NCBI RefSeq assembly: GCF_044357305.1
Contig: NZ_JBIKPS010000009.1
Location: 20,032 to 84,031 of the forward strand
Source of the DNA: Flavobacterium sp.
GTDB taxonomy: Bacteria > Bacteroidota > Bacteroidia > Flavobacteriales > Flavobacteriaceae
Length of the DNA stretch: 64,000 nucleotides
Direction of reading: 5' to 3'
A program made the position numbers and the translations under genes. Below, in pieces: positions 3,198 through 38,677 of the stretch. The notes below the pieces were generated by a model that was given only the letters and a program-made list of their open reading frames with translations, searched no databases and was not told the DNA's origin. How positions within the stretch are numbered: the stretch's first letter is position 1; every line of letters starts with the position of its first letter.

Positions 3198-3198
3198 T

Positions 3199-21282: not shown

Positions 21283-24117
21283 ATGTCTGAAGAAAGAAAT
21301 ATTAGAATAAACAAAGTTTTAAGGGAATTAAACATTTCGTTAGAAAGAGCTATCGATTATCTTAAAGATAAGGGTATTGCTATTGATGCAAACCCAAATG
21401 CTAAGATATCCGATAAAGAGTTTGATATTCTACAAAATCAATTTGCCGGTGATAAGGGCAATAAAGAAGCGTCTAAAGGGGTTAGCGAAGAAATAAAGAA
21501 AGAAAAAGAGGCACTTCGTCTAGAAAGAGAAAAAGAAATTGAAGACAAGAAAAAACTAGAAGAAGAGCGTCAACGTCTGGAAGTTATTAAAGCTAAAGCT
21601 GTAGTTTCTAGCCCAAAACAAGTTGGAAAAATTGATTTAAATCCAAAAGCTTCTGTTTCTCCAAAGACTGAATCTGTAAAAATTCCGGAAGTTAAAACTC
21701 CAGAGGTTGCTGCTCCTATAGCAGAACCTGTGGCAGTCAAAACTCCAGAAGTTAAAGTTGCTCCTAAAGCACCTTCCGAAGAAAAGAAAGCGGCTCCAGT
21801 TGTAACTGAAAAACCAACACCAAAAGCGGAAGTTGCTGCGCCTAAGAAAGAAGTAGCAAAAGAAGAAAAAACAATTGCGGTTGAACCAGTTGTTGATGAA
21901 ACTCATACTACGCAATACCAAAGCCTTACAGGACCAATATTAACTGGTCAAAAAATTGATTTAACTCAATTCAACAAACCTAAAAAGAAAGTTGAAACCC
22001 CAAAAATTAACAGCGGAAGTAAGTTAGATCCAAATAAAAACAAACGTAAAAGAATCCCACCAAAACCAGGGGAAGCAAGACCAGGAACTCCTGGAGGAGC
22101 TGCTGGAGGTCCAAGACCACCGGGAACTGGAGGAAAATTTACTGCAAATAAACCAGGCGGTGGCGGTTTTGTTAAAGGAAACCGACCTGCTATTGTTCAA
22201 AAGGTAGAGCCTACAGAAGAAGAGGTTAAAAATCAAATTAAAGAAACGCTAGAAAGACTGCAAGGAAAAGGTTCTAAATCCAAAGCAGCTAAGTACAGAA
22301 GAGATAAAAGAGATACCCACCGTCAGCGTTCTGACGATGAGCAAAGAGCTATCGATGAAGGAAGCAAAACGATCAAAGTAACAGAATTTGTTACTGTTGG
22401 TGAAGTTGCTACCATGATGGATGTGCCAATTACTAAAGTTATTGGAACGTGTATGTCACTTGGAATCATGGTTACCATGAACCAACGTTTGGATGCAGAA
22501 ACCTTAACTATTGTTGCAGATGAATTTGGATATGAAGTAGAATTTATTACTACAGATCTAGAAGATTCTATGGAAGTGGTTGAAGAAAGAGAAGAAGATT
22601 TAGTTACTAGAGCGCCTATCGTAACCGTAATGGGTCACGTCGATCACGGTAAAACTTCGTTATTAGATAACATCCGTAAAGAAAATGTAATTGCAGGAGA
22701 ATCAGGAGGGATCACCCAACATATTGGTGCTTATGCAGTACAATTAGACAACGGACAAAAAATTACCTTCTTAGATACCCCTGGTCACGAGGCGTTTACC
22801 GCAATGCGTGCCCGTGGAGCGCAGGTTACCGATATTGCAATTATTGTGATTGCGGCGGATGATGACATCATGCCACAAACTAAAGAGGCTATCTCCCATG
22901 CTCAAGCAGCTGGAGTACCTATGATATTTGCTATCAATAAGGTAGATAAACCGCATGCAAATCCGGAGAAAATTAAAGAGAAATTAGCAGGAATGAACCT
23001 TCTTGTAGAGGACTGGGGTGGTAAATACCAATCGCATGATATTTCTGCAAAAACGGGATTGGGAGTTAAAGAACTTTTAGAAAAAGTTTTATTAGAAGCA
23101 GAAATATTAGATTTAAAAGCAAATCCAAATAAACCTGCCGTTGGAACTGTTGTGGAAGCACAATTAGATAAAGGTAGAGGATATGTTTCTACTATATTAG
23201 TACAATCTGGAACTTTAAAAGTTGGAGATTATGTATTAGCTGGTAAAAACCACGGTAAGGTAAAAGCAATGTACGATGAAAGAGGAAACAGCGTGAAAGA
23301 AGCTGGTCCTTCTACACCAATGTCTATTTTAGGATTGGACGGAGCGCCTACCGCTGGAGATAAATTCAACGTATTTGAAGATGAAAGAGAAGCGAAGTTA
23401 ATTGCTGCCAAACGTACGCAATTAATGAGAGAGCAATCGGTAAGAACCCAACGTCATATTACTTTGGCAGAAATTGGTCGTCGTATTGCACTTGGACAAT
23501 TTAAAGAATTGAACATTATCCTTAAAGGGGATGTGGATGGTTCTGTAGAAGCATTGTCTAACTCGTTCACTAAATTATCTACGGAAGAAATTCAAATCAA
23601 TATTATCCACAAAGGAGTTGGAGCAATTACCGAAACCGACGTTATGTTGGCTTCTGCTTCCGATGCGATCATTATCGGATTTAACGTTCGTCCTGCAGGA
23701 AATGCAAGACAACTTGCCGATAAAGAAGAAATTGATATCCGTAATTACTCCATTATCTACGATGCAATTGATGACTTGAAGGATGCAATGGAAGGAATGT
23801 TGTCACCAATAATGAAAGAAGAAGTAACCGGTACTGCCGAAATTAGAGAAACATTCAAGATCTCTAAAATTGGAACCATTGCAGGTTGTATGGTTACTGA
23901 TGGTAAAATATTCAGAAACTCTAAAATACGTATTATTCGTGAGGGAGTGGTGGTGTTTACAGGTGAGCTTACCGCATTAAAACGATTCAAAGACGACGTA
24001 AAAGACGTTTCTAAAGGATACGATTGTGGTATTCAAATAAAAAATTACAACGACATAGAGCAGTTGGATATTATTGAAGCTTTCCAGGAAGTAGAAGTAA
24101 AGAGAAAACAAAAATAG
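21283..24117 (+). CDS. infB: Translation initiation factor IF-2
   Basis: [16 protein letters not shown] and INKVD motifs; C-terminal GYDCGI. Confidence 0.98.
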
Positions 24118-24134
24118 TCTATAAGTATAAAGTT

Positions 24135-24163
24135 AAAAATCCCGAGCAATCGGGATTTTTTTT
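24135..24163 (+). terminator. Terminator after infB
   Basis: aaaaatcccga-gcaa-tcgggattttt plus a T-run. Confidence 0.75.
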
Positions 24164-24311
24164 GGACCTATTTTATAGAAGTAAATAATGCAAGATAGGT
24201 GATTTGAATTAGGTACTGTCTTTCGATGAAAGATATAGGAAGCCTTATTTATCCATAAAAAAAGCCCCATTAAGGGACTTTTTTCTTTTATAAATCAGAC
24301 GGGAATGAATT

Positions 24312-25187
24312 TTAGTTTCCGATAACTATGTTATAAGAATTACCGTTCACTGTGTATACAGCCAAGTTATCGCAGTCTCCGTTACCATAATCTAAAGTAG
24401 CAGAATGATTGTTTTTTGTAAATGTAATAACTCCTTCAACAAGTAGTGGTTTTTGTGTATTCATGCAACTCATTTTTGCTTTAAGTGGAGTTGTGATAGT
24501 ACTAGTAACAATTCCAGATGGATGAGTGGTTGTCCAATTTCCGGTTATGCTGTAAATATTATCAGAAAAAACATTTGGTGTACCATAACCTTCAATAATT
24601 TCTCTAGTTCTTGTACCAACTCTATGGTGGATTTCACCATTAATAGTTGTAGCTGTTAAATCCATGTTCATAACCACAATTGGATGACTTGGTGATGTTG
24701 CGGTAGCAACACTCATTGTTCTAGTAAATGATTTATCTCCTTCAATTTTAATAGTGTTATGATAGAAATTAACAAAACTATAATTTACAGTTTGACTTGC
24801 AGCAGTTGGATGATAGGTAAATGTTATAACAATTTTACCACTTACAAAATTATTGTTTGATAAAGTACATCCTGCGCCAAAATCAATTGTTTTAGTCACT
24901 TGGTCTCCATCAACTAAAGCAGTTCCAAAACTTGGTATTCTTGTAATTGTAGCACAAGCTGACAAAGCTACATCACCATTCTTATTTGAAAAAGAATTAG
25001 AATTTATATTGTTATATTGGTCTTCAACAATAGAACTTACATCATCACTTGCTAGATCAATTTTAGAACTAGATTGCGCCTCTTCTTTAGTCATAAAGGA
25101 ATTGTCTGAAGAATCATTTTTGCTACAACTAGCAAAGAAAAAAACAGCACTTAAAGCAGCCATTTTAATAAAAGATTTTGTTTTCAT
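24312..25187 (-). CDS. Hypothetical lipoprotein, probably surface exposed
   Basis: Lipobox FFASC followed by SKNDSSD, resembling the Bacteroidota lipoprotein export signal; Thr/Gly-rich beta-strand sequence with IDFGAGC and LDYGNGDCDN. Confidence 0.8.
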   Translation of the reverse strand: MKTKSFIKMAALSAVFFFASCSKNDSSDNSFMTKEEAQSSSKIDLASDDVSSIVEDQYNNINSNSFSNKNGDVALSACATITRIPSFGTALVDGDQVTKTIDFGAGCTLSNNNFVSGKIVITFTYHPTAASQTVNYSFVNFYHNTIKIEGDKSFTRTMSVATATSPSHPIVVMNMDLTATTINGEIHHRVGTRTREIIEGYGTPNVFSDNIYSITGNWTTTHPSGIVTSTITTPLKAKMSCMNTQKPLLVEGVITFTKNNHSATLDYGNGDCDNLAVYTVNGNSYNIVIGN

Positions 25188-25296
25188 AGATATAAATTTA
25201 GAATGTTATTTAAATAAGACTAGGTCAAATATAAATGGTTTAATCTTAAGATAAAAATTTATTTCAGATACTTTGATTATCGTATCTTTGAACGCA

Positions 25297-26274
25297 ATGA
25301 ATATTATTTCACAAATAAAACAACCCATTCAACTAGAAATGGAACTTTTTGAAAAAAAGTTCTACGAATCGATGTCTTCTAAGGTAGCGTTGCTTAATAG
25401 AATTACCTATTATATTGTGAACCGAAAAGGGAAACAAATGCGACCAATGTTTGTTTTCTTGACTGCCAAAATGATTTCTGGCGGGATGGTTAATGAACGA
25501 ACTTACAGAGGCGCTTGTGTTATTGAACTTATTCACACTGCAACATTGGTGCACGATGATGTGGTAGATGACAGTAACAGAAGAAGAGGATTTTTCTCTA
25601 TCAATGCCCTTTGGAAAAATAAAATTGCCGTTTTAGTTGGTGATTATTTACTTTCCAAAGGATTATTACTTTCTATAGATCATGGCGATTTTGATTTACT
25701 CCGAATTATCTCGGTTGCTGTGCGAGAAATGAGTGAAGGCGAATTACTTCAAATAGAAAAAGCACGACGATTAGATATTACGGAGGACATTTACTACGAA
25801 ATCATCCGCCAAAAAACAGCAACACTTATTGCTGCTTGTTGCGCCTTAGGAGCCAAATCCGTTTCGGAAGATGAATTTCAGGTGGAAACAATGCGTAAAT
25901 TTGGAGAACTCATAGGAATGGCTTTTCAAATAAAAGACGATTTATTCGATTATACCGATGAAGCCATAGGGAAACCAACTGGAATTGACATCAAAGAACA
26001 AAAAATGACTTTGCCGTTAATTCATGCTTTGAATAATTGTACCGATAAAGAAAAAAGCTGGTGCATCAATTCCATAAAAAACCACAACAAGGATAAAAAA
26101 CGAGTAAAAGAGGTAATCCAATTTGTGAAAGACCAAAACGGATTACACTATGCCGAACAAAAAATGGAGGAATTCCAGCACGAAGCACTCGCTTTAATTC
26201 AAAGCTTCCCCAATTCTATTTATAAAGATAGTTTGATTCTGATGGTGAACTATGTGATTGAAAGGAAAAAATAG
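25297..26274 (+). CDS. Polyprenyl diphosphate synthase (long-chain, probably for the menaquinone side chain)
   Basis: GKQMRP, HDDVVD..RRG, FQIKDD and GKPTG.D motifs. A TATCTTTG promoter at 25283-25290 supports the start at 25297. Confidence 0.93.
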   Translation: MNIISQIKQPIQLEMELFEKKFYESMSSKVALLNRITYYIVNRKGKQMRPMFVFLTAKMISGGMVNERTYRGACVIELIHTATLVHDDVVDDSNRRRGFFSINALWKNKIAVLVGDYLLSKGLLLSIDHGDFDLLRIISVAVREMSEGELLQIEKARRLDITEDIYYEIIRQKTATLIAACCALGAKSVSEDEFQVETMRKFGELIGMAFQIKDDLFDYTDEAIGKPTGIDIKEQKMTLPLIHALNNCTDKEKSWCINSIKNHNKDKKRVKEVIQFVKDQNGLHYAEQKMEEFQHEALALIQSFPNSIYKDSLILMVNYVIERKK

Positions 26275-26400
26275 TGTTCTGTATTCATTTTAAAGTGTTT
26301 TTTCAAAACCTGACAGGTTTTAAGTTACTTAATTGAAACAGTTTTTTTCTTATATTACCGAGCTTTTGCCTACTATTATTTAGTTTCCGAGATTTTATGA

Positions 26401-26457
26401 CTTTAGATGGAACGCGGATTGAACAGATGCTTTGCAACGCGGATCCAATAGCGGATT
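26401..26457. repeat. CGCGGAT repeat module, inverted relative to 3531-3586
   Basis: gatggaacgcggat..gatgctttgcaacgcggat matches the reverse complement of 3531-3586. Confidence 0.8.
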
Positions 26458-26516
26458 TGCAATCTGTGCCCACTATCAAAATCAAAAAAAAGAGTAACAT
26501 AAAAAAGTTTTTTTGT

Positions 26517-26639
26517 CTGAAGCGAAAGGCATGCGCATTTTAGTAAAGGCAATTCCCGCTTTTCGTTGCAATCTGTCATTGCGAGGAACGAAGCAATCTC
26601 ATAACAAAAATTGATATACGCAATGCCAGGATTTCCACT
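26517..26639. repeat. ~120-bp direct repeat, copy 1 (contains the GTCATTGCGAGG module)
   Basis: Aligns with 31956-32076 with about 7 differences by eye. Confidence 0.9.
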
Positions 26640-26721
26640 GCAAATAAAATTCATCGAACTCCGCTAAAAAAAATAGCAAAGTGAGATAATCGGGGCTAGA
26701 TTGGTTTTGTCTTTTGTGAAA

Positions 26722-28110
26722 TTAGTTGTCCAAATTAGCCATGATTTTAAACATTTCAACATTAGAAGTAAAATACCTATTCTCCATGCTTAATTCCGAT
26801 AATTGGGAACCCACCAAATTGTTTTCTCTTGAATTTATCAAAAACAGAGAGCTTTCTCCAAATGTAAACAATCGCTCTTCGGAGGTTAACATAGCATCGT
26901 AATCTTTAACCAAAGCCGAAATTAATTTGCGCTGTTTTACCAAAGAGTTGATTTCAATTTGTTGGGAAACAATTTTATTTTTTAATTGTACCCGTTCTAA
27001 ATCTAATGCAAATTGTGCATCTTGAATTTTAAATTTAGCCATTTGCAATCCGCCACGCTCTTTTCTTAAAAATAATGGATAACTAAAGTTTACGCCAATT
27101 TTAAAATTATCAAAGTTCGTAGAATTCCAATAACTAGGTTCCGATAAATAATGGTATCCCAAGTCTATTTTTGGCAATAAATTATTTCTTTTAAGATTGC
27201 GCTCCACTTCCAGTAGGGCAATTTTACTTTGTAAGGCATTTATTTTAGGATGATTTTCAATAGAAGTACTGGGCACTAGTAAATCATTAGTTTTTAAAGT
27301 TTCCTGAATAGTCAGTTCTAGTTTTTCTTCTGGAGTAATTCCATCTTGAATTTCCAAGGGCACATTGTTTTCTAACCATAAATAATTAGACAATTCAAGT
27401 TTGGATTTAGCTAATTTTAATTGGGAATCTTCTAAATTTAATTTTCTATTTCGTACTGTAATTCCAGCTTCAATGCTGTCTATTGCCGACTTGTCGCCAT
27501 TTTCAATTAAACTCGATACGGCATTATAGCGAACCTCGGCATTTTTTAAATAATTTTCATAAAGCTGCACTTGACTATAATTTAGTTTCCAATTAAAATA
27601 GGCTATCGAAGCAGCATACAAAACCTCAATAGATTGTAATTTTCGTTCTGCTTGACTCCATTGCAATTGAATTTTAGCCTTTTGCAAATCAGCCATTCGT
27701 TGATTGATTAATAATCCTTGTCCCAACGGAATGTTAATACCTAAAGAGCTTAAGCCTTTGTTTGGCAAAGTGTTTTCTGGGTTTAAATAAATCCCTTCGC
27801 TATTGTCAAAACCTGCTTTAACTTCAATTCCATACCAAGTTGGGATTTTGAAACTACTATTTAAAATTGAATAATAGGTTTTATCTTTAAATTGTTTTTT
27901 GTCAAAATCTACTTCTATTTTAGGGTCAAATCCTCCGCGGGCCATCATCAAATTAGCTTGCGCAGTATTGATTTGTAGATTTGCGCTTTTTACCATAGGG
28001 TGGTATTTTTTTACAAAACCTAAAAATTCATTGTAAGTAAGTTCATTGTCCTTTTTTTCTTGTCCAATCAAGGAAATGCTTATCAATAGAAAAACTAAAA
28101 TTTTCTTCAT
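26722..28110 (-). CDS. TolC family outer membrane efflux protein
   Basis: Signal peptide, two helical repeats, C-terminal GESSLFLINSRE; downstream of HlyD. Confidence 0.9.
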   Translation of the reverse strand: MKKILVFLLISISLIGQEKKDNELTYNEFLGFVKKYHPMVKSANLQINTAQANLMMARGGFDPKIEVDFDKKQFKDKTYYSILNSSFKIPTWYGIEVKAGFDNSEGIYLNPENTLPNKGLSSLGINIPLGQGLLINQRMADLQKAKIQLQWSQAERKLQSIEVLYAASIAYFNWKLNYSQVQLYENYLKNAEVRYNAVSSLIENGDKSAIDSIEAGITVRNRKLNLEDSQLKLAKSKLELSNYLWLENNVPLEIQDGITPEEKLELTIQETLKTNDLLVPSTSIENHPKINALQSKIALLEVERNLKRNNLLPKIDLGYHYLSEPSYWNSTNFDNFKIGVNFSYPLFLRKERGGLQMAKFKIQDAQFALDLERVQLKNKIVSQQIEINSLVKQRKLISALVKDYDAMLTSEERLFTFGESSLFLINSRENNLVGSQLSELSMENRYFTSNVEMFKIMANLDN

Positions 28111-29456
28111 TACTTTTTTTCTTTAGTTATTTCCCCTTTTGGTTGGTAATAATTAGGCGGAAAACCATTAAGGGTTCTCCATAATTCATACCAAATTGGT
28201 ACATTTTCAAGTAAAGCTAATGTTTGAGCACCCGACCCCATACTAATTTGCTTTGGCCAAGAATCTTCATTTTTGTCTGGGGCAATTAAAACTCTAAATT
28301 TTCCATTCGGGCTTATGTAATTTTCAATAGCTACAATTTTTCCTCCAAAAGTTCCATAACTCATATTTGGCCAACCTGAAAAAACCACGGTAGGCCATCC
28401 ATCAAACCAAATTCTAACTTTTTCTCCTTTGTGAATTAAGGGTAAATCATTCGGCATTACATAGGTTTCTACTGCAATGTCATATTTGGAAGGCATGATA
28501 CTTACCAGTTGCGTTCCTTCTTTAATGGTTTCGCCAATTCCAGATTGTAAAGTGCGGTTTATATAACCATCTTGCGGCGCTTTTATATAATACATGCCAT
28601 TTCGAATTTGGTAATTTACATACTGATTTTGTAGTTTATTTACTTGCGCTTCGGTATCGTATTGGCTACTCATTGCGGTGTATTGATCACTTTGAGCTTT
28701 GGAACTTTTTTCGGCGTATTCTGCATTAATTCTATTTACTTCTACTTTGGTATTTATTAGTTCATTTTTACTGGTTAGAAATTTATTTTCTTGAGTAATA
28801 ATCTTAGCTTCCACCTCCTGTAATTTCAATCTTTTTTCTTCAACATCGGTTAAGGGCTTCAATCCTTCTTTGTTTAAGGTTACCGATCGATTGAACTGTG
28901 TAGTTGCAATTTTGAATTGGGTTTTTACAGCAACCAAATCCATACTGTCGCTTTTTACTTTCAAAACGGATTGTCTAATTTTATTTTGTGCTTGTTGTTG
29001 TTTTAATACTTTTTCATTTTCAATTGCATTAATTTGTTCGGATAGGGTGTTTACTTTACTGCCATACGATTTTGCTGCCATTTTTTTTGCATCCACTTGG
29101 CTTTTTGTATTTTGAACTAAATTAGGATCAAAATAGTCTTCTTTTACTTCAGAAATAAAAATGATGGTATCTCCTTTTTTCACGTAGTCTCCTTCTTGTA
29201 CATACCATTTTTCAATTCGGCCTGCAATTGCAGAATGTATGGTCTGTGGACGTTGATCTGGCTTTAAAGTTGTAACAGCTCCTGAACCAGAGATATTTTG
29301 TGTCCATGGAAGAAATAAAATTGCTATCCCAAAAAGAGAGACATAGAGGATTATTTTATTTAAAATTCTGTAATGAGGTCGATTACTTAAATTTTTGACA
29401 GAAGTATATTGATCAATATTTTCTGTTATCGGATTTTTTTCAGATATATTTAGCAT
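28110..29456 (-). CDS. HlyD family membrane fusion protein
   Basis: One TM helix, IAGRIEKWYVQEGDYVKKGD lipoyl-like half motif, long coiled coil, IKAPQDG. Confidence 0.92.
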   Translation of the reverse strand: MLNISEKNPITENIDQYTSVKNLSNRPHYRILNKIILYVSLFGIAILFLPWTQNISGSGAVTTLKPDQRPQTIHSAIAGRIEKWYVQEGDYVKKGDTIIFISEVKEDYFDPNLVQNTKSQVDAKKMAAKSYGSKVNTLSEQINAIENEKVLKQQQAQNKIRQSVLKVKSDSMDLVAVKTQFKIATTQFNRSVTLNKEGLKPLTDVEEKRLKLQEVEAKIITQENKFLTSKNELINTKVEVNRINAEYAEKSSKAQSDQYTAMSSQYDTEAQVNKLQNQYVNYQIRNGMYYIKAPQDGYINRTLQSGIGETIKEGTQLVSIMPSKYDIAVETYVMPNDLPLIHKGEKVRIWFDGWPTVVFSGWPNMSYGTFGGKIVAIENYISPNGKFRVLIAPDKNEDSWPKQISMGSGAQTLALLENVPIWYELWRTLNGFPPNYYQPKGEITKEKK

Positions 29457-29461
29457 GGCAA

Positions 29462-31126
29462 TTATTTATTGTTGTCGGTAATTACTTTCCCATCTTTCAT
29501 AGCTATTACTCGGGTACATTTTTGTTTCCAATAGTTATTTTTGGAAGAGACAATAACAGTCCATTTATTTTTTGCATCCGTTATAAAGTCGATTATTTCC
29601 ATAGCTGCTTTTTCATCCATTTTGTCCAGAGGATCTTCATAGAATAATACTTTTGGTTTATTTATAATACTTCGAGCCAAAATTATTTTTTGTGCATTAG
29701 AAGAAGATAATTGTCTGCCATCGGGGAAGATTTTTGTGCTTAAACCTTCGGGTAATGATTTGATAAACGAACTTAATTGTGCATTTTCAATCGCCCATTT
29801 TAGGTCTTCATGAGAAAGGTTAGGACTATTAAACGTTATGTTTTCTAGTATTGTTCCTTCAAATGGCATTTCACCTTGAATAATTGTTCCAATTTGCGAT
29901 CGATAATTATTAAAATCTATTTTTCTATAAGTGTCATCATTTATAAAAAACGATCCTGAAATTGGTTGTAAAAACCCAGATAGAATTCGTATTAAAGTCG
30001 TTTTTCCTGATCCATTAGGGCCTTCGAGAAATATTTTTTCCGATTGATCTATTTTTAAATTTATAGTATTCAATATATCATTGCTGGAATCTGGAAATTT
30101 GAAACTTAAGTTTTCTGCTTCAATGCAAATATTGGTGAAACAATAATCTTGCTCTTTTGTTGTTGGTTTTTCAATGTTTAAATCTACAATTTGTCCAATT
30201 TTTTCAACCGAAGTAAGCACATCGTACAAGCTTTCTAATCCAACAATAATTTTTTCAACAGAATTTATTACCAGTAAAATAATTATTTCAGCAGCTACAA
30301 ATTGCCCAATATTCATTTCTTGATTTAGTACTAAATAGCCACCAATTAAAAGCAAACTAGCCGTAATAATAACTTTAAATCCTATTAGTTGAACAAATTG
30401 CCTTTTGATGATTTTAAAATGTTTTTCTCTATGCGATAAATATTCTTCTACAAGAGAGTCATTTTTTTGAAGAGCAAATTCAAAGTTTTCTTTTTTTCGA
30501 AAACTAAAATTATTTCGAGCTATTTCTTGAAGCCAACCCGCAACTTTATATTTGTACTTAGATTCTTTTAAACTGGTTGAGAGTCCAGAATTGTAAGAAA
30601 ATTTAAAAATAGAGTAAAGCAATAGTAACAGAAATATTCCAAAAAACACAAAAAAGGAATGGTATAAAGAAAGTAAAATTATTCCGAAAATAATTTGCAA
30701 TATTGCGGTAGAAAAATCAATTAATAGTTTTGAAGTTCCTTTTTGAATCGTTAAAGTATCAAAAAAACGATTGGCTAATTCGGGTGGATATTTATCGTAT
30801 AATTCTTCAAAAGTGATTTTAGGCAAACGATATCCAAATTCAAACGAGGAACGAACAAATATTTTTTGTTGAAGGTTTTCGGTAATTCGTAGTTGCATTA
30901 AAGACAAAATTCCAACTAAGGCTACACCAATTACAACTACAAAAATAAGCACAAACCAAGAAATACTTGTTCGTCCTGCCTGAATTAAATTGATTATAGC
31001 TTGAATCCCTAAAGGTAAAGAAAGACTTACCAATCCGGAAAAAATGGCATAGAAAAAAATCTGTGAGATGTCTCTTTTATCTAATTTTAATAAATTAAAA
31101 TAACGTTTTAATGGCGATGGATTCAT
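29462..31126 (-). CDS. Type I secretion-like ABC transporter (TMD+NBD) with degenerate catalytic motifs
   Basis: Six-TM domain with IGQFVAAE; Walker A GPNGSGKTT; signature LSSSN, Walker B LFYED and switch region VSSK. Confidence 0.88.
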   Translation of the reverse strand: MNPSPLKRYFNLLKLDKRDISQIFFYAIFSGLVSLSLPLGIQAIINLIQAGRTSISWFVLIFVVVIGVALVGILSLMQLRITENLQQKIFVRSSFEFGYRLPKITFEELYDKYPPELANRFFDTLTIQKGTSKLLIDFSTAILQIIFGIILLSLYHSFFVFFGIFLLLLLYSIFKFSYNSGLSTSLKESKYKYKVAGWLQEIARNNFSFRKKENFEFALQKNDSLVEEYLSHREKHFKIIKRQFVQLIGFKVIITASLLLIGGYLVLNQEMNIGQFVAAEIIILLVINSVEKIIVGLESLYDVLTSVEKIGQIVDLNIEKPTTKEQDYCFTNICIEAENLSFKFPDSSNDILNTINLKIDQSEKIFLEGPNGSGKTTLIRILSGFLQPISGSFFINDDTYRKIDFNNYRSQIGTIIQGEMPFEGTILENITFNSPNLSHEDLKWAIENAQLSSFIKSLPEGLSTKIFPDGRQLSSSNAQKIILARSIINKPKVLFYEDPLDKMDEKAAMEIIDFITDAKNKWTVIVSSKNNYWKQKCTRVIAMKDGKVITDNNK

Positions 31127-31132
31127 AATGCT

Positions 31133-31804
31133 TTATCTTAAAGTAGTTTCAATTAAATTGAGGTAAAAGGCGGTTGGAGAATTATCTTTATCACAATCTG
31201 TTATTGTTTTTAAATGATCTTTTAAAAAATGTTGGTGTAATGCTCCTTCAATTATTGACGAGGCTAATGTTTTTGCAAAAATATAATTTGGGTTTACCTC
31301 ATGTATCATTTCTATTATTCTATTTATTACTCTTTTGTAAATTAGGAAGAAACCTTCTTTATTTTCCTCATCTATTTCTTTGGTAATAATGGTTTTAGTA
31401 AATTCCTGAATGATTATTTTATTCAAAATAGACTCGTTAATATGCAACGTGGTGCTGTCATCTTCCACCTTTTCAGTCACTATGGTAATAGCCTTTTTCA
31501 ATCGCTCCATAGGATTTGAAACATTATTTGTAGCAAAAACCATTTTGTATTCTATCCAACCCCAATACCAAGACGATAGGTATAGCATTAGTTTGTGTTT
31601 GTTTTCAAAATAGCGATAGATAGAGCTTTCGTTAGATTGAATTCGTTCTCCCAATTTTTTGAAGGTAAAATTTTCAAAGCCTATTTCATCAATTAAAAGA
31701 ATACTTTGTTCGATAATTTTTTTTCCTAATTCAGAGGTCTCCGGATTTTTAACATATAGTTTTGAATTCACCGAAATTATAATATTAGAAAGCATGTTTT
31801 GCAT
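31133..31804 (-). CDS. TetR/AcrR family transcriptional regulator
   Basis: GFENFTFKKLG..IQSNESSIYRYFENK helix-turn-helix. Confidence 0.9.
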   Translation of the reverse strand: MQNMLSNIIISVNSKLYVKNPETSELGKKIIEQSILLIDEIGFENFTFKKLGERIQSNESSIYRYFENKHKLMLYLSSWYWGWIEYKMVFATNNVSNPMERLKKAITIVTEKVEDDSTTLHINESILNKIIIQEFTKTIITKEIDEENKEGFFLIYKRVINRIIEMIHEVNPNYIFAKTLASSIIEGALHQHFLKDHLKTITDCDKDNSPTAFYLNLIETTLR

Positions 31805-31955
31805 AAAATGATATATTTATACGCAAAGATAATAGTAATACTATTAAAAAAGAAATTTTAACTTTTAATTATAACAAAAGAGATTCAAATTAATGAACCT
31901 CTTTTGTTTTTCTATATCCTAATCGGTTTTTAAACCTCTTAGTTATTTTTTTTAA

Positions 31956-32076
31956 CTGAAGCGAATGGCTTGCGCATTTTAGAAAATGCAATTCCCGCTT
32001 TTCGTTGCAATCTGTCATTGCGAGGGACGAAGCAATCTCATAACAAATTGATATACGCAATGCCAGGATTTCCACT
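31956..32076. repeat. ~120-bp direct repeat, copy 2
   Basis: Near-identical to 26517-26639. Confidence 0.9.
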
Positions 32077-32090
32077 TTAATCGGGGCTAT

Positions 32091-32391
32091 TTAGCAATGG
32101 TATTGAATAGAGGCACTATTTCTAAGAAACTTCTGCTTCAAGTTGTCATTCTGACCAAGGAAGAATCCCAAACAAAACATAAAAAAACCACCAAAATCAC
32201 TTTTGATGGTTTCTGTTATTTCAATAAGTAAAACCGTTGTGTTACTTCGTGCAACCTTTGTGGCTCTTTGTGTTACAGTATAAAGTACTTTCACAAAGTT
32301 TCACTAAGAATTAAACTGTAATAGCTTGAGTTTATTTGCAAATCCGCCTATCGTTTTATTGATCCGAAGTCAGGAGACTTCGGATAGCGGG
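32091..32391. repeat. ~300-bp direct repeat, copy A
   Basis: About 11 differences from 33480-33780 by eye; ends in the hairpin atccgaagtc-agga-gacttcggat followed by agcggg. Confidence 0.95.
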
Positions 32392-32429
32392 GGAGCTAGA
32401 CAGGTTTTGTCTTTTGTAAAATCATTAGT

Positions 32430-32463
32430 TTACAACAACGAATGTTTTGTCATTACTTCTGGT
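32430..32463 (-). pseudogene. Relic duplicate of the gpmI 3' end (encodes PEVMTKHSLL-stop)
   Basis: 31/34 nt identical to 38678-38711 in the same orientation. Confidence 0.85.
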
Positions 32464-32502
32464 ATTTTTAAACACAAATTTAATTAGAAGAAGTAGGATA
32501 GA

Positions 32503-33111
32503 TTATGCCTTCAATAGAATTAAATCATAATACATTAAACGAGTTTCTAATTTGGAATTAGTAGCTATTCCTGTAAACTCTTTTTCTTGTTCTTCACTAC
32601 TAAATAAAGGAATAAATTCGTTGTCAGAATAATATTTTAAAGGTCCAGATTCGTTATAAGAATCCACAACAATAAAACGGCAGCCAGTTTTATTTGAACC
32701 ATCAATGAACCAAGATTTAATAAAATCCATCAATTGTTTGCCTATTCTTTCCGTTTCCTCTTTTAGGAATCGGTAGTTTTTATTTACCCCAAGTCTTCCA
32801 ATTAAAACAGCAGGATAGGATTTCATTTGTTTCTGTCTCGGAATGTTTTGAATTATTTTTTTCTTTCGTGCATTAGGTAAAAGAAATGTTTTTATACTAT
32901 CGTTGGAAATAGTGAAAGCACACACAATAATTTCTGGAGTTGCATCTAAAGTAAAACAATAGGTTTTGCCCAATAATTCAGAGGAATAATTTAAGGCGTC
33001 ATTACAGAAAAAATCATTTAAATCGGTATTGTCACAATCAAAAGGTAGACATGAATTAATGACTTCGCTGTTATAGATTTTCAGCGTGCATTTATCGAGA
33101 AGAAAGCCCAA
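32503..33111 (-). CDS. GNAT-fold acetyltransferase, toxin-like
   Basis: FDCDNTDLNDFF, YPAVLIGRLGV and GCRFIVVDSY..YY..NEF resemble AtaT/TacT-type GNATs; TTG start. Confidence 0.8.
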   Translation of the reverse strand: MGFLLDKCTLKIYNSEVINSCLPFDCDNTDLNDFFCNDALNYSSELLGKTYCFTLDATPEIIVCAFTISNDSIKTFLLPNARKKKIIQNIPRQKQMKSYPAVLIGRLGVNKNYRFLKEETERIGKQLMDFIKSWFIDGSNKTGCRFIVVDSYNESGPLKYYSDNEFIPLFSSEEQEKEFTGIATNSKLETRLMYYDLILLKA

Positions 33112-33118
33112 TGTATAA

Positions 33119-33274
33119 TTATATTTTCGCTTTCGCTAAAATTTTAGACGCAACAACCGATTGCTTAGAAAAATCTACAGAAGATTTTTTTGCAGTATTT
33201 AAAGCAACTGCCGAAGTAAAAACTTGTGCAGGTTTGTCTCTTAAAACAGGTATTGATTTGATTGCAATAGCCAT
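33119..33274 (-). CDS. 51-aa protein upstream of the GNAT gene (putative antitoxin); missing from the ORF track
   Basis: Hand translation MAIAIKSIPVLRDKPAQVFTSAVALNTAKKSSVDFSKQSVVASKILAKAKI; a TACTTTTG promoter at 33296-33303; 7 nt to the GNAT start. Confidence 0.75.
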   Translation of the reverse strand: MAIAIKSIPVLRDKPAQVFTSAVALNTAKKSSVDFSKQSVVASKILAKAKI

Positions 33275-33443
33275 AATTAAATTAGTTTAATAATGCAAAA
33301 GTAAATTAATCATTAAAAATAACAATACAATGAACTAAAATTTAACAATATCTCCCCGCCAGTGTCATCCAACATAGGAGAAATCTCATAATAGTGACAG
33401 TATATCTGATAGCCTTGCGGGTGCCTATCCTCGAGATTTATTG

Positions 33444-33467
33444 ATCCGAAGTCTGGAGACTTCGGAT
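33444..33467. repeat. REP-like hairpin ATCCGAAGTC-N4-GACTTCGGAT (also at 32362-32385 and 33751-33774)
   Basis: Perfect 10-bp stem; three copies, each followed by AGCGGG. Confidence 0.85.
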
Positions 33468-33479
33468 AGCGGGAGCTAG

Positions 33480-33780
33480 TTAGCAATGGTATTGAATAGA
33501 GGCACTATTTCTAAGAAACTTCTGCTTCAAGTTGTCATTCTGACGAAGCAAGAATCCCAAACAAAACATAAAAAAACCACCAAAATCACTTTTGATGGTT
33601 TCTGTTATTTCAATAAGTAAAACCTTTGTGTTACTTCGTGCAACCTTTGTGGCTCTTTGTGTTACAGTATAAAGTTCTTTCACAAAGTTTCACTAAGATT
33701 TAAACTGCAATAGCTTGAGTTTATTTACAAATCTGCCTATCGTTTTATTGATCCGAAGTCAGGAGACTTCAGATAGCGGG
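33480..33780. repeat. ~300-bp direct repeat, copy B
   Basis: Offset of 1389 nt from copy A. Confidence 0.95.
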
Positions 33781-33781
33781 A

Positions 33782-33991
33782 GGTCAGTATAGAGTTTCGG
33801 TAAGACCTTATTGAGCTTCGGTAGGTCAGTATAGAGTTTCGGTAAGACCTTATAGAGCTACGGTAGGTCAATATAGGTTTTCGGTAGGTCAGTATAGAGT
33901 TTCGGTAGGTCAGTATAGAGCTTCGGTAGGTCAATATAGGTTTTCGGTAAGACCTTATAGAGCTTCGGTAAGTCAATATAGAGTTTCGGTA
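33782..33991. repeat. 10 x 21-bp tandem array
   Basis: Consensus GGTCAGT-ATAGAGT-TTCGGTA with recurring variants; every unit ends in CGGTA. Confidence 0.95.
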
Positions 33992-34050
33992 AGGCTTAAT
34001 GCTTTTTACATAAGGCTTAATGCTTTTTACATAAGGCTTAATGCCTTATA
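33991..34050. repeat. Second 21-bp tandem repeat, about 2.8 copies
   Basis: aaggcttaatgctttttacat twice, then aaggcttaatgccttata. Confidence 0.9.
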
Positions 34051-34127
34051 ATTTTGTTTTTTTTGCCACAGATTCTCACGGATGCCACGGATTTTTTAGA
34101 ATGCCACCGTTTTGACATTTAAACGTA

Positions 34128-34158
34128 AAAGCCACAAACGAATTTGTGGCCTTTAAAA
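34128..34158 (-). terminator. Probable terminator after the T9SS gene
   Basis: Stem gccacaaa/tttgtggc with a U-tract on the minus strand. Confidence 0.55.
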
Positions 34159-34176
34159 AAATACTAACTGAAACTT

Positions 34177-35862
34177 TTATTGTTTTACAATTTTAAAAAC
34201 CTGTTCTTTATTTTCAGTTTCTGCCTTAATAATATAATTGCCAGAAGGCAAAATAGTTAAATCCATATTGAACTCACTACTGTTCTTAAACTGATTAATT
34301 AACAATTGCCCAAGCACATTATAAACAGAAATTTGTTTTAGTATCTCATTAGATTTTATCGTTATAAAATCCTTAACTGGATTCGGGTTGAAATCAATCG
34401 TTAGTAATTGATTTTGATTAACTCCTAAACCTAGTGTTACAGTTATTGCTAATCTTGGACCTTCGCAACCATTAACTGTTTGACTAACATAATAAGTTGT
34501 ACCAGAAACTAAGGGAGTTGTATTTGAAATGGCACTATTTCCAGCGGAAGTGCTATACCATTGAATATTCGTCCCGGTCACAATAAGATTAGCTAGTGTG
34601 TTACCAGTACTAAATGTTTGACTTGAAGTTCCAGTCGGAGCACTCGTTGTATTTAGTATTGTAGCGCTTGTAGTTGAAGAACAGGAACCATTAGTAATTA
34701 CACAAGTATAACTTCCAGAAGCAGTAGCAGAATAAGTAGCTGACGTTGCTCCTGAAATAGTCACTCCGTCCTTTTTCCACTGATAACTGTTAGATGAGCC
34801 TGCAGGCACTGTTAATAGTTGAGACCCACAAAAAGAATTTGTTCCGTTAGGACTCATTACAAAAGAACTTGATAATACCGTTACATCCGATGTTTTTGTA
34901 CAACCTGATGAACTGTCTGTAACTTTAACGGCATAACTACCCGTAGCAGTAGGTAAATAATTGATATTTATTCCACTTACAATAGTATTTCCATTTAAAG
35001 TCCACTGATAGGTTAAATTAGTTCCTGAATTAGCAACCAAATTAAAATTACTTGAAGCACATACCAAAACCTGCCCAGAAGGAGTCATTGTTGCAATTGG
35101 TAATGGTTTAAATGTAATATTTATTGCGTCTGTATAAGTTGTGTTATCTAATGTCGCAGAAACACCATAATCGCCCGCTAATGTTGGAGTAAAGGTAACA
35201 GATTGTCCGTGAGTGCCATCAAACCAAGTAGGAGTAAATCCATTTGGCCCTGCATAATTTAGGGTTACAGGTGTATCAGGACAAATTTGTAACGCATCAC
35301 CTTCTTGAACTAAATTGGCATTAGGGTTCGCTCCATATGGAAAAACCACTTTTTTAAATAAAGGTCCCCAATTATTATTTACATCTTTTGCACGAATGTT
35401 AAATAATATTGGTCCTGAAGCAATATCCCAAGTGGCTTGAGTTCTAAAAATGGTTTCTACAGCCTCGTCAAGTGCACCGTCAAAAGCTACAATAGTAGTT
35501 CCGCTGCCTTCTCCTGGATCAAAATTACCAAAGAAATATTCAAACTTAGTAAGTTTTATTTGTCTTGAATTAGAAGTATTTGGCATAACAAACATAACTT
35601 TTTTGAAAATGGGACCCCATAAGTTACTTCCATCTTTTACCCTAATATTAAATAATACAGGTCCAATATTTGTTTGAGTATTAACATAATTTGCAATTAT
35701 ACTTTCCACCCTTTCATTAAACACTCCATCTTCTGCAATTAATATTGTACCGTTACCATTTCCAGGGTCAATAGTTCCCCAAAAATATTCTGCTGCAGTA
35801 ATTTTTTGCTGTGCATTAATACAACTGCCTACTAATAAAAATAATAGTATTAACTTTTTCAT
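34177..35862 (-). CDS. T9SS type-A CTD protein with two EYF..DPG.G.GT repeats and Ig-like domains
   Basis: Signal peptide; duplicated ~80-aa N-terminal unit; Thr/Ser-rich Ig-like modules; CTD FNPNPVKD..ISVYNVLGQ..LPSGNYIIK..VFKIVKQ. Confidence 0.88.
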   Translation of the reverse strand: MKKLILLFLLVGSCINAQQKITAAEYFWGTIDPGNGNGTILIAEDGVFNERVESIIANYVNTQTNIGPVLFNIRVKDGSNLWGPIFKKVMFVMPNTSNSRQIKLTKFEYFFGNFDPGEGSGTTIVAFDGALDEAVETIFRTQATWDIASGPILFNIRAKDVNNNWGPLFKKVVFPYGANPNANLVQEGDALQICPDTPVTLNYAGPNGFTPTWFDGTHGQSVTFTPTLAGDYGVSATLDNTTYTDAINITFKPLPIATMTPSGQVLVCASSNFNLVANSGTNLTYQWTLNGNTIVSGININYLPTATGSYAVKVTDSSSGCTKTSDVTVLSSSFVMSPNGTNSFCGSQLLTVPAGSSNSYQWKKDGVTISGATSATYSATASGSYTCVITNGSCSSTTSATILNTTSAPTGTSSQTFSTGNTLANLIVTGTNIQWYSTSAGNSAISNTTPLVSGTTYYVSQTVNGCEGPRLAITVTLGLGVNQNQLLTIDFNPNPVKDFITIKSNEILKQISVYNVLGQLLINQFKNSSEFNMDLTILPSGNYIIKAETENKEQVFKIVKQ

Positions 35863-35867
35863 ACTAC

Positions 35868-37208
35868 TTAATTTTTATGGTATCCTTTAGCTTTAATATC
35901 TATACTTTGACCAGGAAACAAATCCGTTGGCATATCTAAATCAAAAATAAACGCTTTGCTATTATTCGAGTTTGATGTCGGATTGTAATTTAATAGTGAA
36001 TATGGACCTCCATTTCTTCCCCTATCATTAATTGTTAAATCAATGTCGTAAAATTGGTGATTAGGATTTCCTCCATCAATTTCGTTAGCTGGTCCTTGAA
36101 TATTTGTTAAATTTAAAGGAGAACCAGATGTAGGGTTAATGAATGCTGTTTGAAGTCCATTATATGAAAAATCAAAAAATCCTGGAACGTTAATATTGGG
36201 AAAATTATTAGACCCTAAAGAAACCCAGCCATAACACATGAAATTAGGAGGCATGGTTGGATTGTTTTGCCCATTTATATAATACCATCCACTAGGTCCA
36301 TTACAACACCAGTTCCATGAAGGCATCCATTCATTGTAGCTCATAGGTGAGTTTGGCAAAGTAGTATAACTTTGTTGATAAAATAAACCACAATTACCAC
36401 TAGATGCTGTCACAAACCCATTAATAAATTTATTACTAGAAAAAATAATATTGTATCTTGGCACACTTGAAATGGAAAAATTTAACACACAATTATCTGT
36501 AAATTCATTATTTGTTATGTAGTTTTTTATATTTTCATTTGCATTCCATCTTCTAAAAGATAAATCCCGCATAGAATTATTTGCTACTACCACAGGATAA
36601 TCATTATTGAAAACCCCAATCAAAAACTGTACTTGATTTGCTATTATTAAATTACGTTCAGTTATGTTAGGATTATCTTGAGGCTCATCCATTAGAGAAA
36701 TTTGTTTTGTTATATTCTTTATTACATTACCATTTCTAAAAATAATCCCGTTTGTAATTTGATTTTCAATAAAATTCACTTGATAATAATCATTATCAAA
36801 CGATAAATATTCCGAACTACAATTTATAATACTTATTTTACTTCTGTTTGAAGCTATGCCTCCTATTATTGGACTAGCATTAAATGAATAAATACCTAAA
36901 TTAAATCCTATTATTTCTAATTTCATTCCTGCAAAACCACTAATAATAATATTTGCATTGAAATTAATTGTTGTGCCAGGAGTTTGGGGCATTATCTGTA
37001 GTGATTTTGAAATTGTTAACTCTGGTTCATTATAGGTTGTAGAAGCAATAATTATTCTATCCCCGTTTACTGCAGCATTTACAGCGGAAGTAATTGAAGT
37101 GAATAAAGTAGTTCCATTACCTGCGGAAAGGTTGGGGTCAACAAAACGGTCTGTAGCAAAAATGCTGGTAGCCGTAAGAAAAGTTAAAATTGTAAAGATT
37201 TTTTTCAT
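35868..37208 (-). CDS. Secreted protein with a predicted right-handed beta-helix; no T9SS CTD
   Basis: Signal peptide; FTSITSAVNAAVNGDRIII..YNE start typical of parallel beta-helices; Asn-rich; IDGGNP..DIDLTINDRG.NGG near the C-terminus. Confidence 0.7.
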   Translation of the reverse strand: MKKIFTILTFLTATSIFATDRFVDPNLSAGNGTTLFTSITSAVNAAVNGDRIIIASTTYNEPELTISKSLQIMPQTPGTTINFNANIIISGFAGMKLEIIGFNLGIYSFNASPIIGGIASNRSKISIINCSSEYLSFDNDYYQVNFIENQITNGIIFRNGNVIKNITKQISLMDEPQDNPNITERNLIIANQVQFLIGVFNNDYPVVVANNSMRDLSFRRWNANENIKNYITNNEFTDNCVLNFSISSVPRYNIIFSSNKFINGFVTASSGNCGLFYQQSYTTLPNSPMSYNEWMPSWNWCCNGPSGWYYINGQNNPTMPPNFMCYGWVSLGSNNFPNINVPGFFDFSYNGLQTAFINPTSGSPLNLTNIQGPANEIDGGNPNHQFYDIDLTINDRGRNGGPYSLLNYNPTSNSNNSKAFIFDLDMPTDLFPGQSIDIKAKGYHKN

Positions 37209-37274
37209 GGTTATTTTATGTAAAATTGATTTTTTTTATTCGTGTATAATTTTGGAAAGCTTAAATAGACAACA

Positions 37275-37595
37275 TTAATTATTACGGTCACAGAAAACTA
37301 AAGATTTACATATTCGTTTACTTTTTGGACATTTTCTTAAACCTAAAGAAAAGGATTTGTTTTTTATAAGTTGACTAACTACATTATTTACTGACTGACA
37401 AGTGTTTGCATGACCTATTACATTTTTATGAGTTCTTATCCAAACATCGAGTGATTTTGGTTTTGGATGTAGACTTAAGATTACTTTATTTGATCCTATA
37501 ATCATATATTCAATTTTGCTTTCTTTGAAGTGTGCTATTAAATCCTGAATAGGAATTGTTTTATTATTAGCATGTGGTAATATTATTTGTTCCAT
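37275..37595 (-). CDS. Hypothetical 106-aa basic protein with C-terminal CPxSxRxC
   Basis: ATG start, no competing ORF, same strand as the downstream pair; TAAGTTTG promoter-like box at 37693-37700. Confidence 0.65.
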   Translation of the reverse strand: MEQIILPHANNKTIPIQDLIAHFKESKIEYMIIGSNKVILSLHPKPKSLDVWIRTHKNVIGHANTCQSVNNVVSQLIKNKSFSLGLRKCPKSKRICKSLVFCDRNN

Positions 37596-37783
37596 TTTCC
37601 ATTTTTTATTAATTAGCCCGCCTAATGAGTTTCGTATAAATATTTTTACATTTATTTATTGTCTTGAAATAGTTGCTTTACGTAATTTCCTACAAACTTA
37701 CAATTGGAATTAAGAAAAAAACTTTTGTAAAATTTCTTTAATTGAATAAAAACGTCTAATTTTGAACTATTAATACTTTTATC

Positions 37784-38542: not shown

Positions 38543-38548
38543 ATTCGG

Positions 38549-38608: not shown

Positions 38609-38623
38609 GTAAATTTACTTTAT

Positions 38624-38652: not shown

Positions 38653-38677
38653 ATACTATTAATATTTTAATACTATT

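Follow-up and report, generated by a model that had tools for sequence, protein, structure and literature searches.

Were the genes that stand between short repeats in this part of a Flavobacterium genome captured as cassettes, or did the repeats settle around genes that were already there? The locus lies in the window, a 64,000-nucleotide (nt) stretch of a Flavobacterium sp. genome (G000; 3.28 Mb in 49 contigs, 33% G+C) whose positions are numbered from its first letter. Between a polyprenyl synthase gene and gpmI, repeat modules meet at a shared GGG(A)GCTA junction on either side of an exporter operon. An earlier note on this DNA read the modules as filled and empty sites of a cassette-accretion system, an interpretation that is partly supported here. 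The locus is probably a mosaic of short intergenic repeats that form hairpins, with the Rfam family Flavo-1 (RF01705) at its core, whose copies recombine with one another and drive rearrangement, with no accretion of cassettes.

Flavo-1 was given only as a candidate RNA by Weinberg et al. (PMC2864571). Although it has been listed since 2010 as a candidate small RNA (sRNA), a transcriptome study of F. psychrophilum did not place it consistently in transcripts: its matches are sense, antisense or outside transcribed regions, and some 5' transcribed regions overlap them (PMC9723704).

The junction sequence

The observation that drew attention to the locus is confirmed. At 26688-26717 the window reads aatcggggcta|gattggttttgtcttttgt. 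At 32079-32089 it reads aatcggggcta again, followed after about 309 nt by gggggagcta|gacaggttttgtcttttgt at 32390-32417. Further GGGGCTA or GGGAGCTA strings lie at 3350-3357, 32392-32398 and 33471-33478. All the strings quoted in the earlier note were verified in the window, and ATCGGGGCTA is in excess of chance, with three occurrences (3348, 26689 and 32080) against 0.03 expected; none of 100 shuffles reaches three. The tolC stop codon and the stop codon of a gpmI relic are each followed by the same acaaaagacaaaacc..ctagc sequence, as had been reported. The modules are real, are dispersed genome-wide and end sharply at ...GGGGCTA: in a depth profile, 22 of about 39 genome-wide alignments of the neighbouring module stop at 32089/32090.

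Repeat finding gives a 300-nt pair (32083-32382 and 33472-33771, 96% identical), a 100-130-nt pair (26508-26639 and 31947-32076, 93% identical) and a 39-nt hairpin module with three copies in the window. Partial copies of these modules occur at 3198-3590.

Read on the minus strand, the junction proves to be the Flavo-1 5' head (UAGCCCCGAU). The Rfam covariance model starts with uuuUAGCCccGAUu, and UAGCCCCGAUU corresponds to model positions 4-14; aatcggggcta is therefore this conserved, unpaired head in reverse complement. Two minus-strand matches in the window exceed the gathering score of 42 bits, one at 31987-32092 (58.1 bits) and one at 3277-3360 (56.1 bits). The match at 26548-26655 falls below it (34.4 bits) because an insertion of 44-46 nt displaces the head.

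Related junctions had also been claimed at 32394 and 33471. The string GGGAGCTA is indeed present there, but as part of another hairpin module (CCGCTATCCGAAGTCTCCTGACTTCGG), which carries a TAGC head in just two local copies among 15 in the genome.

Distribution and structure of Flavo-1 units

The whole genome of G000 contains 86 Flavo-1 matches, 79 of which are at or above the gathering score, and 73 of the 86 have the TAGCC head. Leader v1 (tttcacaaaagacataacc) precedes 23 copies, with an identical spacing of 4 nt in 22 of them, and leader v2 (ctctattcaataccattgct) precedes five. A tail (aaaatgcccaagccattcgct) follows 41 copies, and 18 finish with TAGCT and a run of A. From the leader counts, the "flank" acaaaagacaaaacc is leader v1, the commonest Flavo-1 leader, and the supposed empty site at 26688 is canonical leader v1 plus the head of Flavo-1.

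On the minus strand, a full unit consists of a leader (v1 or v2), 4 nt, the TAGCC head, a long imperfect hairpin of 66-144 nt with a variable apical loop, and the tail. Some units have a hairpin resembling repetitive extragenic palindromic (REP) sequences, here called "ext", after the tail. Judged against crude calls of open reading frames (ORFs), only two of the 86 copies lie inside long ORFs. Between co-directional genes 35 copies are antisense and 10 sense; 20 lie between convergent genes and 16 between divergent ones. The distance from the tail end to a stop codon has a median of 39-59 nt. Flavo-1 thus has the defining form of a REP, a high-copy extragenic imperfect palindrome with a conserved unpaired head. 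As in bacterial interspersed mosaic elements (BIMEs), several short motif families are arranged around the hairpin repeat in limited orders; modules B and F, the hairpin module and a 21-nt array turn up in varying combinations in the window and on the G000 contigs C47, C4, C14 and C33.

Seven Flavo-1-scoring sequences without the TAGCC head (C35:1730, C43:150212, C38:13971, C26:20147, C42:26575, C2:19005 and C22:1957) have GTGTTGCGTGAGGGATGG...CAGCCCGACCCGAAGGGGCACGCCAT in common. They are probably a distinct structured element caught by the Flavo-1 model.

An orthologous empty site

The earlier note took 26688 and 32079-32417 to be the empty and filled versions of one site. The former is merely a paralogous canonical copy at a different site. 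A genuine empty site can nevertheless be found at the orthologous position in a sister species, G062 (assembly 92% complete), which was found by a search with the 202-aa ORF of the window. Its gpmI product is 98% identical in amino acids (aa) to that of the window, and the DNA is 87-92% identical over more than 12 kb.

At the orthologous joint, G062 reads ...acaaaagacaaaacctgtcTAGCCCCGATTGCAG, with the leader and TAGC|CCCGATT uninterrupted; from the gpmI relic onwards the sequence is gpmI-relic ... gatttcacaaaagacaaaacctgtc TAGCCCCGATTGCAGTG... In G000 the corresponding sequence is ...gattttacaaaagacaaaacctgtc TAGC, then the composite B1 from TCCCCCGCTATCC to CATTGCTAAATAGC, then CCCGATTAAAGTGG..., which places B1 between TAGC and CCCGATT. 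B1 (32086-32398, minus strand) has GCTA at both joints (32086-32089 and 32395-32398), which is compatible with a 4-nt duplication or a shared target. On this pairwise comparison, B1 may be either a 309-nt lineage-specific insertion in G000 or a sequence precisely deleted from G062. The view of the 309-nt element as an insertion is supported to the extent that the orthologous site is uninterrupted; the wider claim, that genes accrete here as cassettes, is not borne out.

In minus-strand order, B1 is made up of the CCGAAGTC hairpin, a cacaaag module, a 14-bp terminator-like hairpin (32214-32183) and leader v2. The plus-strand start of the 300-nt element (tttagcaatggtattgaatagagg...) is leader v2. 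A second composite, B2 (33472-33782, minus strand), also has a 14-bp terminator-like hairpin on the minus strand and is the orthologue of the single B copy of G062. G000 has three full-length B copies, the third at C47:173-511. The half with leader v2 and the terminator hairpin also stands beside Flavo-1 at four other loci, the middle part occurs six further times on C36, and the CCGAAGTC hairpin module has 15 copies in the genome.

The three G000 copies are mutually 94-96% identical (B2-B1 96%, B2-C47 94%) and about 89% identical to the G062 copy. Being closer to one another than to the G062 orthologue of B2, they fit duplication or conversion within G000 after the two lineages split. No terminal inverted repeats were seen in B, and near-identical dispersed copies were not found, the best non-local identity being about 87%. 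The left joints of the other B copies are AAGC, GACC and TTAT. The single event 3' of TAGC is that of B1, which has a hairpin 12 nt inside its left joint; Y1 genes are present in the genome without association. Two other ideas about these modules were dropped. TAGC is not a general head of the CCGAAGTC hairpin module, since only two window copies among the 15 have it, and the F modules are not the terminal inverted repeats of one large miniature inverted-repeat transposable element (MITE), as no single copy has both arms.

The Flavo-1 copy next to B1 also differs between the species. Its apical loop in G000 has a tgtcattgcgagg..gcaatctc motif, and in the orthologous G062 copy it is a REP-like doublet (aaacctgtcaggttttcgaaacctgacaggttt), within flanks that are about 90% identical.

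Origin of the exporter operon

The exporter operon lies on the minus strand and encodes TetR (31133-31804), an ABC exporter (29462-31126), a HlyD-family membrane fusion protein (28110-29456) and a TolC-like outer membrane protein (26722-28110). It had been proposed as a cassette resembling a type I secretion system that was added to the locus, and gene order in relatives contradicts this. G018 and G005 have DUF5916-gpmI-tetR-ABC-HlyD-TolC in this order, and their gpmI-tetR spacer is about 125 nt long. The exporter order is also found in G011, G003 and G002, with 1.5, 5.2 and 8.7 kb of unrelated genes, respectively, between gpmI and tetR. Because TetR-ABC-HlyD-TolC follows gpmI in five congeners, with a homologous spacer, the operon is ancestral and the gpmI-tetR spacer is the variable place.

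The entire spacer of G018 and G005 is homologous to window positions 31805-31905 (minus strand), which comprise the ancestral gpmI terminator hairpin and the tetR promoter/operator region. The original end of gpmI in the window is therefore marked by a 38-nt relic at 32430-32467 (minus strand), about 88% identical to 38678-38714 and also present in G062. The 6.2 kb between this relic and the intact gene, positions 32468-38677, form an island flanked on both sides by a directly duplicated 38-nt piece of the gpmI 3' end, as in islands that insert at gene 3' ends. The island would have entered the 3' end of gpmI; the Flavo-1 unit appears to lie after the former stop codon and before the former terminator. 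G000 and G062 share the relic and part of the island. A Pfam scan of the 6.2-kb island gave no integrase and only an HTH_3 protein, a protein with a C-terminal domain of the type IX secretion system (T9SS) and unknowns. Nor was a recombinase domain, as in an integron-like cassette array, found by Pfam among the window ORFs between 18.5 and 42.7 kb.

Gene content downstream of gpmI varies between species, as the note had expected of the locus; at the strain level, at 99.2% identity, it is invariant. A further arrangement is seen in G009 on C37 (L005), where at 11512-12038 gpmI is followed by a small ORF and a PIN-like ORF before the contig end. The two ORFs, possibly a toxin-antitoxin pair, are another case of variable content at this hotspot.

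The gene order on the other side of the operon can be traced in the same way. Downstream of tolC, G005 and G018 have an acetyl-CoA hydrolase/map block, whose counterpart in G000 is at C11:95056->84591. A 186-aa gene with its neighbours lies downstream of the polyprenyl synthase gene in G014, G016, G003, G011, G002, G005 and G009; the corresponding block of G000 starts at C11:95392->. Both ancestral spacers, after tolC and after polyprenyl synthase, are repeat-free in those relatives. The congener gene orders therefore indicate that G000 carries a reciprocal exchange between the two spacers. The claim that the interval between polyprenyl synthase and gpmI grew by addition is contradicted, as this exchange put polyprenyl synthase beside tolC.

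The products of the exchange can be recognized at both junctions. On C11, the hydrolase stop codon is followed by an ext hairpin, a tail and the last 16 nt of Flavo-1 (GAAAGCGGGAATTGCC), and this remnant directly adjoins unique DNA, the upstream region of the 186-aa gene, so one of the breaks fell within a copy of Flavo-1. At the window junction (26275-26721) stand 126 nt of unique spacer, F, a tail, Flavo-1 with a 46-nt insertion, and leader v1, in an arrangement that resembles the composite on C47. A copying step from a paralogue is likely here, as judged by this resemblance.

In G062 the relic, leader, Flavo-1, tail and ext are joined straight to the hydrolase block, and no orthologue of the ABC gene was found anywhere in the assembly. 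G062 thus appears to have lost the exporter operon, and the missing stretch matches precisely the interval that two direct Flavo-1 copies enclose in G000. The change in the sister lineage is a loss between flanking repeats, not a gain as the note had supposed for this operon.

These comparisons suggest the following history. The ancestral order would have been duf5916-gpmI-tetR-ABC-HlyD-TolC, convergent with the acetyl-CoA hydrolase block, with polyprenyl synthase elsewhere and followed by the 186-aa gene. Before G000 and G062 split, the island would have entered the gpmI 3' end, leaving the 38-nt relic, and Flavo-1 units would have colonized the spacers on either side of the operon. In G062 the operon would then have been lost exactly between the two direct copies. 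In G000, B1 (309 nt) would have been copied into the head of one Flavo-1 at TAGC|CCCG; later, polyprenyl synthase would have been joined to TolC by a reciprocal exchange, one of whose breaks lay inside the other Flavo-1. Recombination and repair may thus use the repeats as substrates and fragile sites. Recombination between copies would give deletions and inversions, and overwriting of Flavo-1 interiors from paralogues would produce lineage-specific loop types and locally near-identical copies.

Exchange between other copies

Evidence for recombination at Flavo-1 is also found away from the window. Thirty G062 Flavo-1 loci were mapped on G000; most are shared and orthologous, and at least five switch to another G000 contig or region at the element. 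In one case both products are present. G000 has A-element-B (C25:99336) and C-element-D (C26:~16870), and G062 has A-element-D (L045) and C-element-B (L057), the tails remaining with flanks B and D. The two species therefore differ by a second exchange between Flavo-1 copies, this one fully reciprocal.

Loop types have turned over as well. The REP-doublet loop is present in seven of 25 G062 copies versus none of 86 in G000, and the tgtcat-motif loop in 21 of 86 G000 copies versus three of 25 in G062. In a survey of 61 congeners, in which the top counts are lower bounds, the number of copies per genome ranges from 0 (three genomes) to at least 64; among relatives, G009 has 11, G014 has 15 and G004 has 3.

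Together with the modular grammar, this range of copy numbers and the positions of breakpoints point to a DNA-level repeat comparable to REP/BIME sequences. Flavo-1 sits at reciprocal exchanges, one operon-sized deletion and one precisely dated nested insertion, and so offers a testable account of where synteny breaks in Flavobacterium genomes poor in insertion sequences (IS). G000 itself is taken to be IS-poor because clustering of about 2,560 crude ORFs gave no multi-copy transposase family; the recurring families were those with T9SS tails and other non-transposase families. A caution follows for similar loci. Direct repeats that flank an operon, and joints that look empty or filled, can come from repeat colonization and recombination around ancestral genes, without cassette capture.

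Y1 transposase genes

The earlier note had suggested that a REP-associated tyrosine transposase (RAYT), a Y1 HUH enzyme, acts on the modules in trans. Y1 genes do occur in G000, which has six matches to PF01797, but none is flanked by the modules and the genus as a whole gives no co-occurrence. No Flavo-1 copy lies within 4 kb of any of the six loci, whereas a RAYT gene would be expected to stand between its own repeats in inverted orientation. A 153-aa Y1 gene on C48 lies between the arms of a unique inverted pair. Another, of 183 aa (C10:330739-331290), stands between arrays of a hairpin of its own (caaggtttccaaaaccttgtagg); the genome has 13-29 copies of this hairpin. The region C10:330400-331500 has three hairpins on one side of this Y1-like gene and two on the other (cctgcaaggtttccaaaaccttgtagg), a textbook RAYT/REP layout that is separate from Flavo-1. 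The idea that this RAYT-flanking hairpin family is tied to Flavo-1 was dropped, as only four of 40 REP-like palindromes lie at most 90 nt from a copy.

Across the 61 congeners, counting PF01797 matches at E<=1e-8 and leaving out weaker ones (E>1e-8), the presence of Y1 is not associated with Flavo-1 load (Mann-Whitney p=0.24; Spearman rho 0.18, p=0.16). Twelve congeners with at least 50 Flavo-1 copies have no Y1 match at this threshold, and a Y1 gene is present in two of the three congeners without Flavo-1. A literature search on RAYT or REP in Flavobacterium turned up nothing relevant. A trans-acting enzyme is likely to be involved in seeding units at new sites, and the evidence does not point to Y1/RAYT.

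A Y1_Tnp-like segment (PF01797 E=3e-11, with a ...KDHIHIVLV... motif) is embedded in a 1262-aa ORF resembling a type IIG restriction-modification protein at C34:6753-10541, about 9.5 kb before the window. Similar long ORFs with the same weak PF01797 match are found in G062 (839 aa) and G038 (1197 aa).

Alternative explanations

Repeats can mislead assembly, and contigs of G000 and related assemblies often finish in these repeats. It is nonetheless extremely improbable that the arrangement is an artefact of collapsed or chimeric repeats in the 49-contig draft. An independent contig from the European Nucleotide Archive (ENA), a metagenome contig among those obtained by exact-protein look-up of TetR, is collinear with window 22473-33780 at 99.16% identity, and five shorter contigs agree. 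In four lake metagenomes, unitigs with 100% identity to the window span 26610-32017 and 32363-33509 and cross the joint of B1, leader and relic; the arrangement of B2, the 202-aa ORF, the relic and the leader is also shared by G062. Apparent unitig joints at 26694>33475 and 32392>33918, considered as variants, are the paralogous C47 composite. If the locus is real, the modules could be REP-like substrates of a trans-acting Y1 HUH enzyme, of RAYT or IS200/IS605 type, that accumulates cassettes by insertion 3' of TAGC/GCTA. Several features recall such a system: B1 stands exactly 3' of TAGC, itself ends in TAGC and has a subterminal hairpin 12 nt from the left joint; Flavo-1 is a long imperfect palindrome whose conserved unpaired head recalls GTAG-headed REPs; REP doublets lie inside G062 Flavo-1 loops; and five or six PF01797 proteins are encoded, the one on C10 in a classical RAYT/REP arrangement. 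Against this, Flavo-1, B and F modules neither flank any Y1 gene nor occur within 4 kb of one, the hairpins beside Y1 genes are unrelated to these modules in sequence, only four of 40 lying near Flavo-1, and the congeners show no association. Insertion at TAGC is a single event, the other B left joints not being TAGC; near-identical dispersed copies are lacking (about 87% at best), and the exporter "cassette" is ancestral. Such a system is quite unlikely here. By analogy with attC or REP sites, the Flavo-1 hairpins might be dedicated recombination or mobilization sites, read as folded single strands by a trans-acting enzyme other than a canonical Y1/RAYT. This is an unlikely reading, but if it were true, operons between two copies, such as the TetR-ABC-HlyD-TolC exporter, would be excisable and re-insertable, and the precise TAGC-head joints, the in-situ replacement of loops and the range from 0 to more than 64 copies within the genus would be explained.

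It is also very doubtful that Flavo-1 is chiefly a functional structured RNA, either an sRNA gene or a cis-regulatory element of 3' or 5' untranslated regions, whose arrangement reflects selection on RNA. The Rfam model itself, the 79 G000 copies that reach its gathering score, the closeness of tails to stop codons, the terminator-like hairpin in B and the F. psychrophilum 5' transcribed regions that coincide with Flavo-1 speak for such a role. An RNA under selection would not readily account for 0 to at least 64 copies within one genus, for the mixed orientation relative to flanking genes, for loops replaced between flanks still about 90% identical, for copies at rearrangement breakpoints, or for F. 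psychrophilum matches that are sense, antisense or outside transcribed regions (PMC9723704). Some copies may also have an RNA role, compatible with a repeat mosaic that recombines. Several points weigh against the mosaic interpretation itself. The window junction at 26401-26721 has a complete Flavo-1, tail and F, is not a simple reciprocal product, and needs an extra step such as templated repair from a C47-like composite. B1 is possibly ancestral and precisely deleted in G062 between GCTA(Y)CCC repeats. As the G062 assembly is 92% complete, the operon could sit in an unassembled part, although it is still missing where the ancestral gene order would place it. For some changes the direction is deduced from no more than two close genomes. 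Ongoing recombination is hypothetical, and the four-lake unitigs gave no variant without B1 or the bracketed genes; this absence is weak evidence because Logan unitigs drop rare variants. Finally, recombination between copies does not account for the spread of units into new spacers.

Comparison with known repeat systems

Rfam Flavo-1. Two window copies reach the gathering score, and the UAGCC head with its hairpin is the junction of the earlier note. The Rfam entry describes an sRNA gene of unknown function; the copies studied here differ in behaving as a dispersed DNA repeat, with modular leaders and tails, nested insertions, lineage-specific loops and recombination between copies.

Enterobacterial REP/BIME sequences. 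These and Flavo-1 alike are imperfect palindromes that occur outside genes in high copy number and have a conserved unpaired head. Both join other short modules in limited orders, lie near gene 3' ends and are substrates of rearrangement. The Flavo-1 hairpin, at 66-144 nt, is longer than that of a REP (about 35 nt), and its head is TAGCC rather than GTAG. Unlike REPs, Flavo-1 has no cognate RAYT that it was found to flank, and no genus-wide co-occurrence with RAYT genes.

IS200/IS605-type palindrome-associated transposable elements (PATEs) and MITEs. B1 resembles these in being short and non-coding, in its precise placement at a 4-nt sequence and in its subterminal hairpin. However, B has one dated insertion, three full-length copies, no terminal inverted repeats and no clear target duplication beyond the shared GCTA. 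It is also a mosaic, and each of its parts has its own distribution in the genome.

Integrative islands at gene 3' ends. The 38-nt gpmI duplication that bounds 32468-38677 and the variable gpmI-tetR spacer are typical of such islands. The 6.2-kb stretch differs from them in having no integrase, and its content already differs between G000 and G062.

Other features of the locus

The polyprenyl synthase ORF occupies 25273-26274 (plus strand). The 126 nt after it (26275-26400), with an alignment depth of 0, are a remnant of the ancestral spacer downstream of this gene; the other half is now on C11, upstream of the 186-aa gene. Next comes an F module of aacgcggat-type repeats (26401-26500, plus strand), which has about 8-13 copies in the genome and is also found beside the C47 composite.

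The Flavo-1 copy A1 of the window junction (26548-26698, minus strand) has its tail at 26508-26547, reading ttactaaaatgcgcatgcctttcgcttc on the minus strand. Its internal insertion (44-46 nt, ~26644-26689) lies between the TAGCCCCGATT head and the stem, and is found elsewhere in G000 only at C47:549 and C25:110041. Leader v1 (tttcacaaaagacaaaaccaatc) at 26699-26721 (minus strand), the "empty site" flank of the earlier note, abuts the tolC stop codon. This stop codon, TAA at 26722-26724, coincides with a TAA in the leader v1 consensus (..attcTAAtttcacaaaag.., window 26717-26727), and the repeat may supply it.

Upstream of tetR, a palindrome aatagtattactatt at 31830-31850 is kept in G000, G018 and G005. 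It is probably a TetR operator.

The second copy, A2 (31987-32092, minus strand), is 93% identical to A1 over 132 nt. Its tail and ext hairpin (~31918-31944) occupy 31915-31986 (minus strand). The leader v1 of the A2 unit is at 32399-32421 (minus strand), and B1 now lies between this leader and A2.

Within the island, a 202-aa ORF (32503-33111) and a small upstream ORF span 32503-33275 on the minus strand. The ORF had been called a GNAT protein; it matches no Pfam family at E<=1e-3. The G062 copy in the same context is 96% identical in amino acids and is its sole close relative; relatives occur in 11 of 151 genomes of the genus. A CCGAAGTC hairpin module preceded by TAGC (33437-33475, minus strand) comes directly after leader v2 of B2. 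The other island ORFs encode the T9SS-tail protein, its unknown partner and the HTH_3 protein. The T9SS pair and the 21-nt array are not found in G062, which has a pseudogenized lipoprotein-like gene at that place. This gene, on C10 (L034) at 21540-22525, has in-frame stops, and the CCGAAGTC hairpin unit comes after it twice in tandem.

Intact gpmI (505 aa; 38678-40195, minus strand) is next to DUF5916, and the spacer downstream of it is a hotspot of variable content across the genus. A third composite, at 3198-3590 (minus strand), contains the Flavo-1 copy at 3277-3360 with leader v2, the tgtcat motif and a terminator-like hairpin, as well as a ttgtg..ctttgtgg module and an inverted F module (3530-3590).

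The 21-nt tandem array lies at 33777-34028, and two units of it stand beside the C47 composite. Arrays of this type are also present at the ends of contigs C11, C13 and C16. They therefore break the assembly and occur at several loci.

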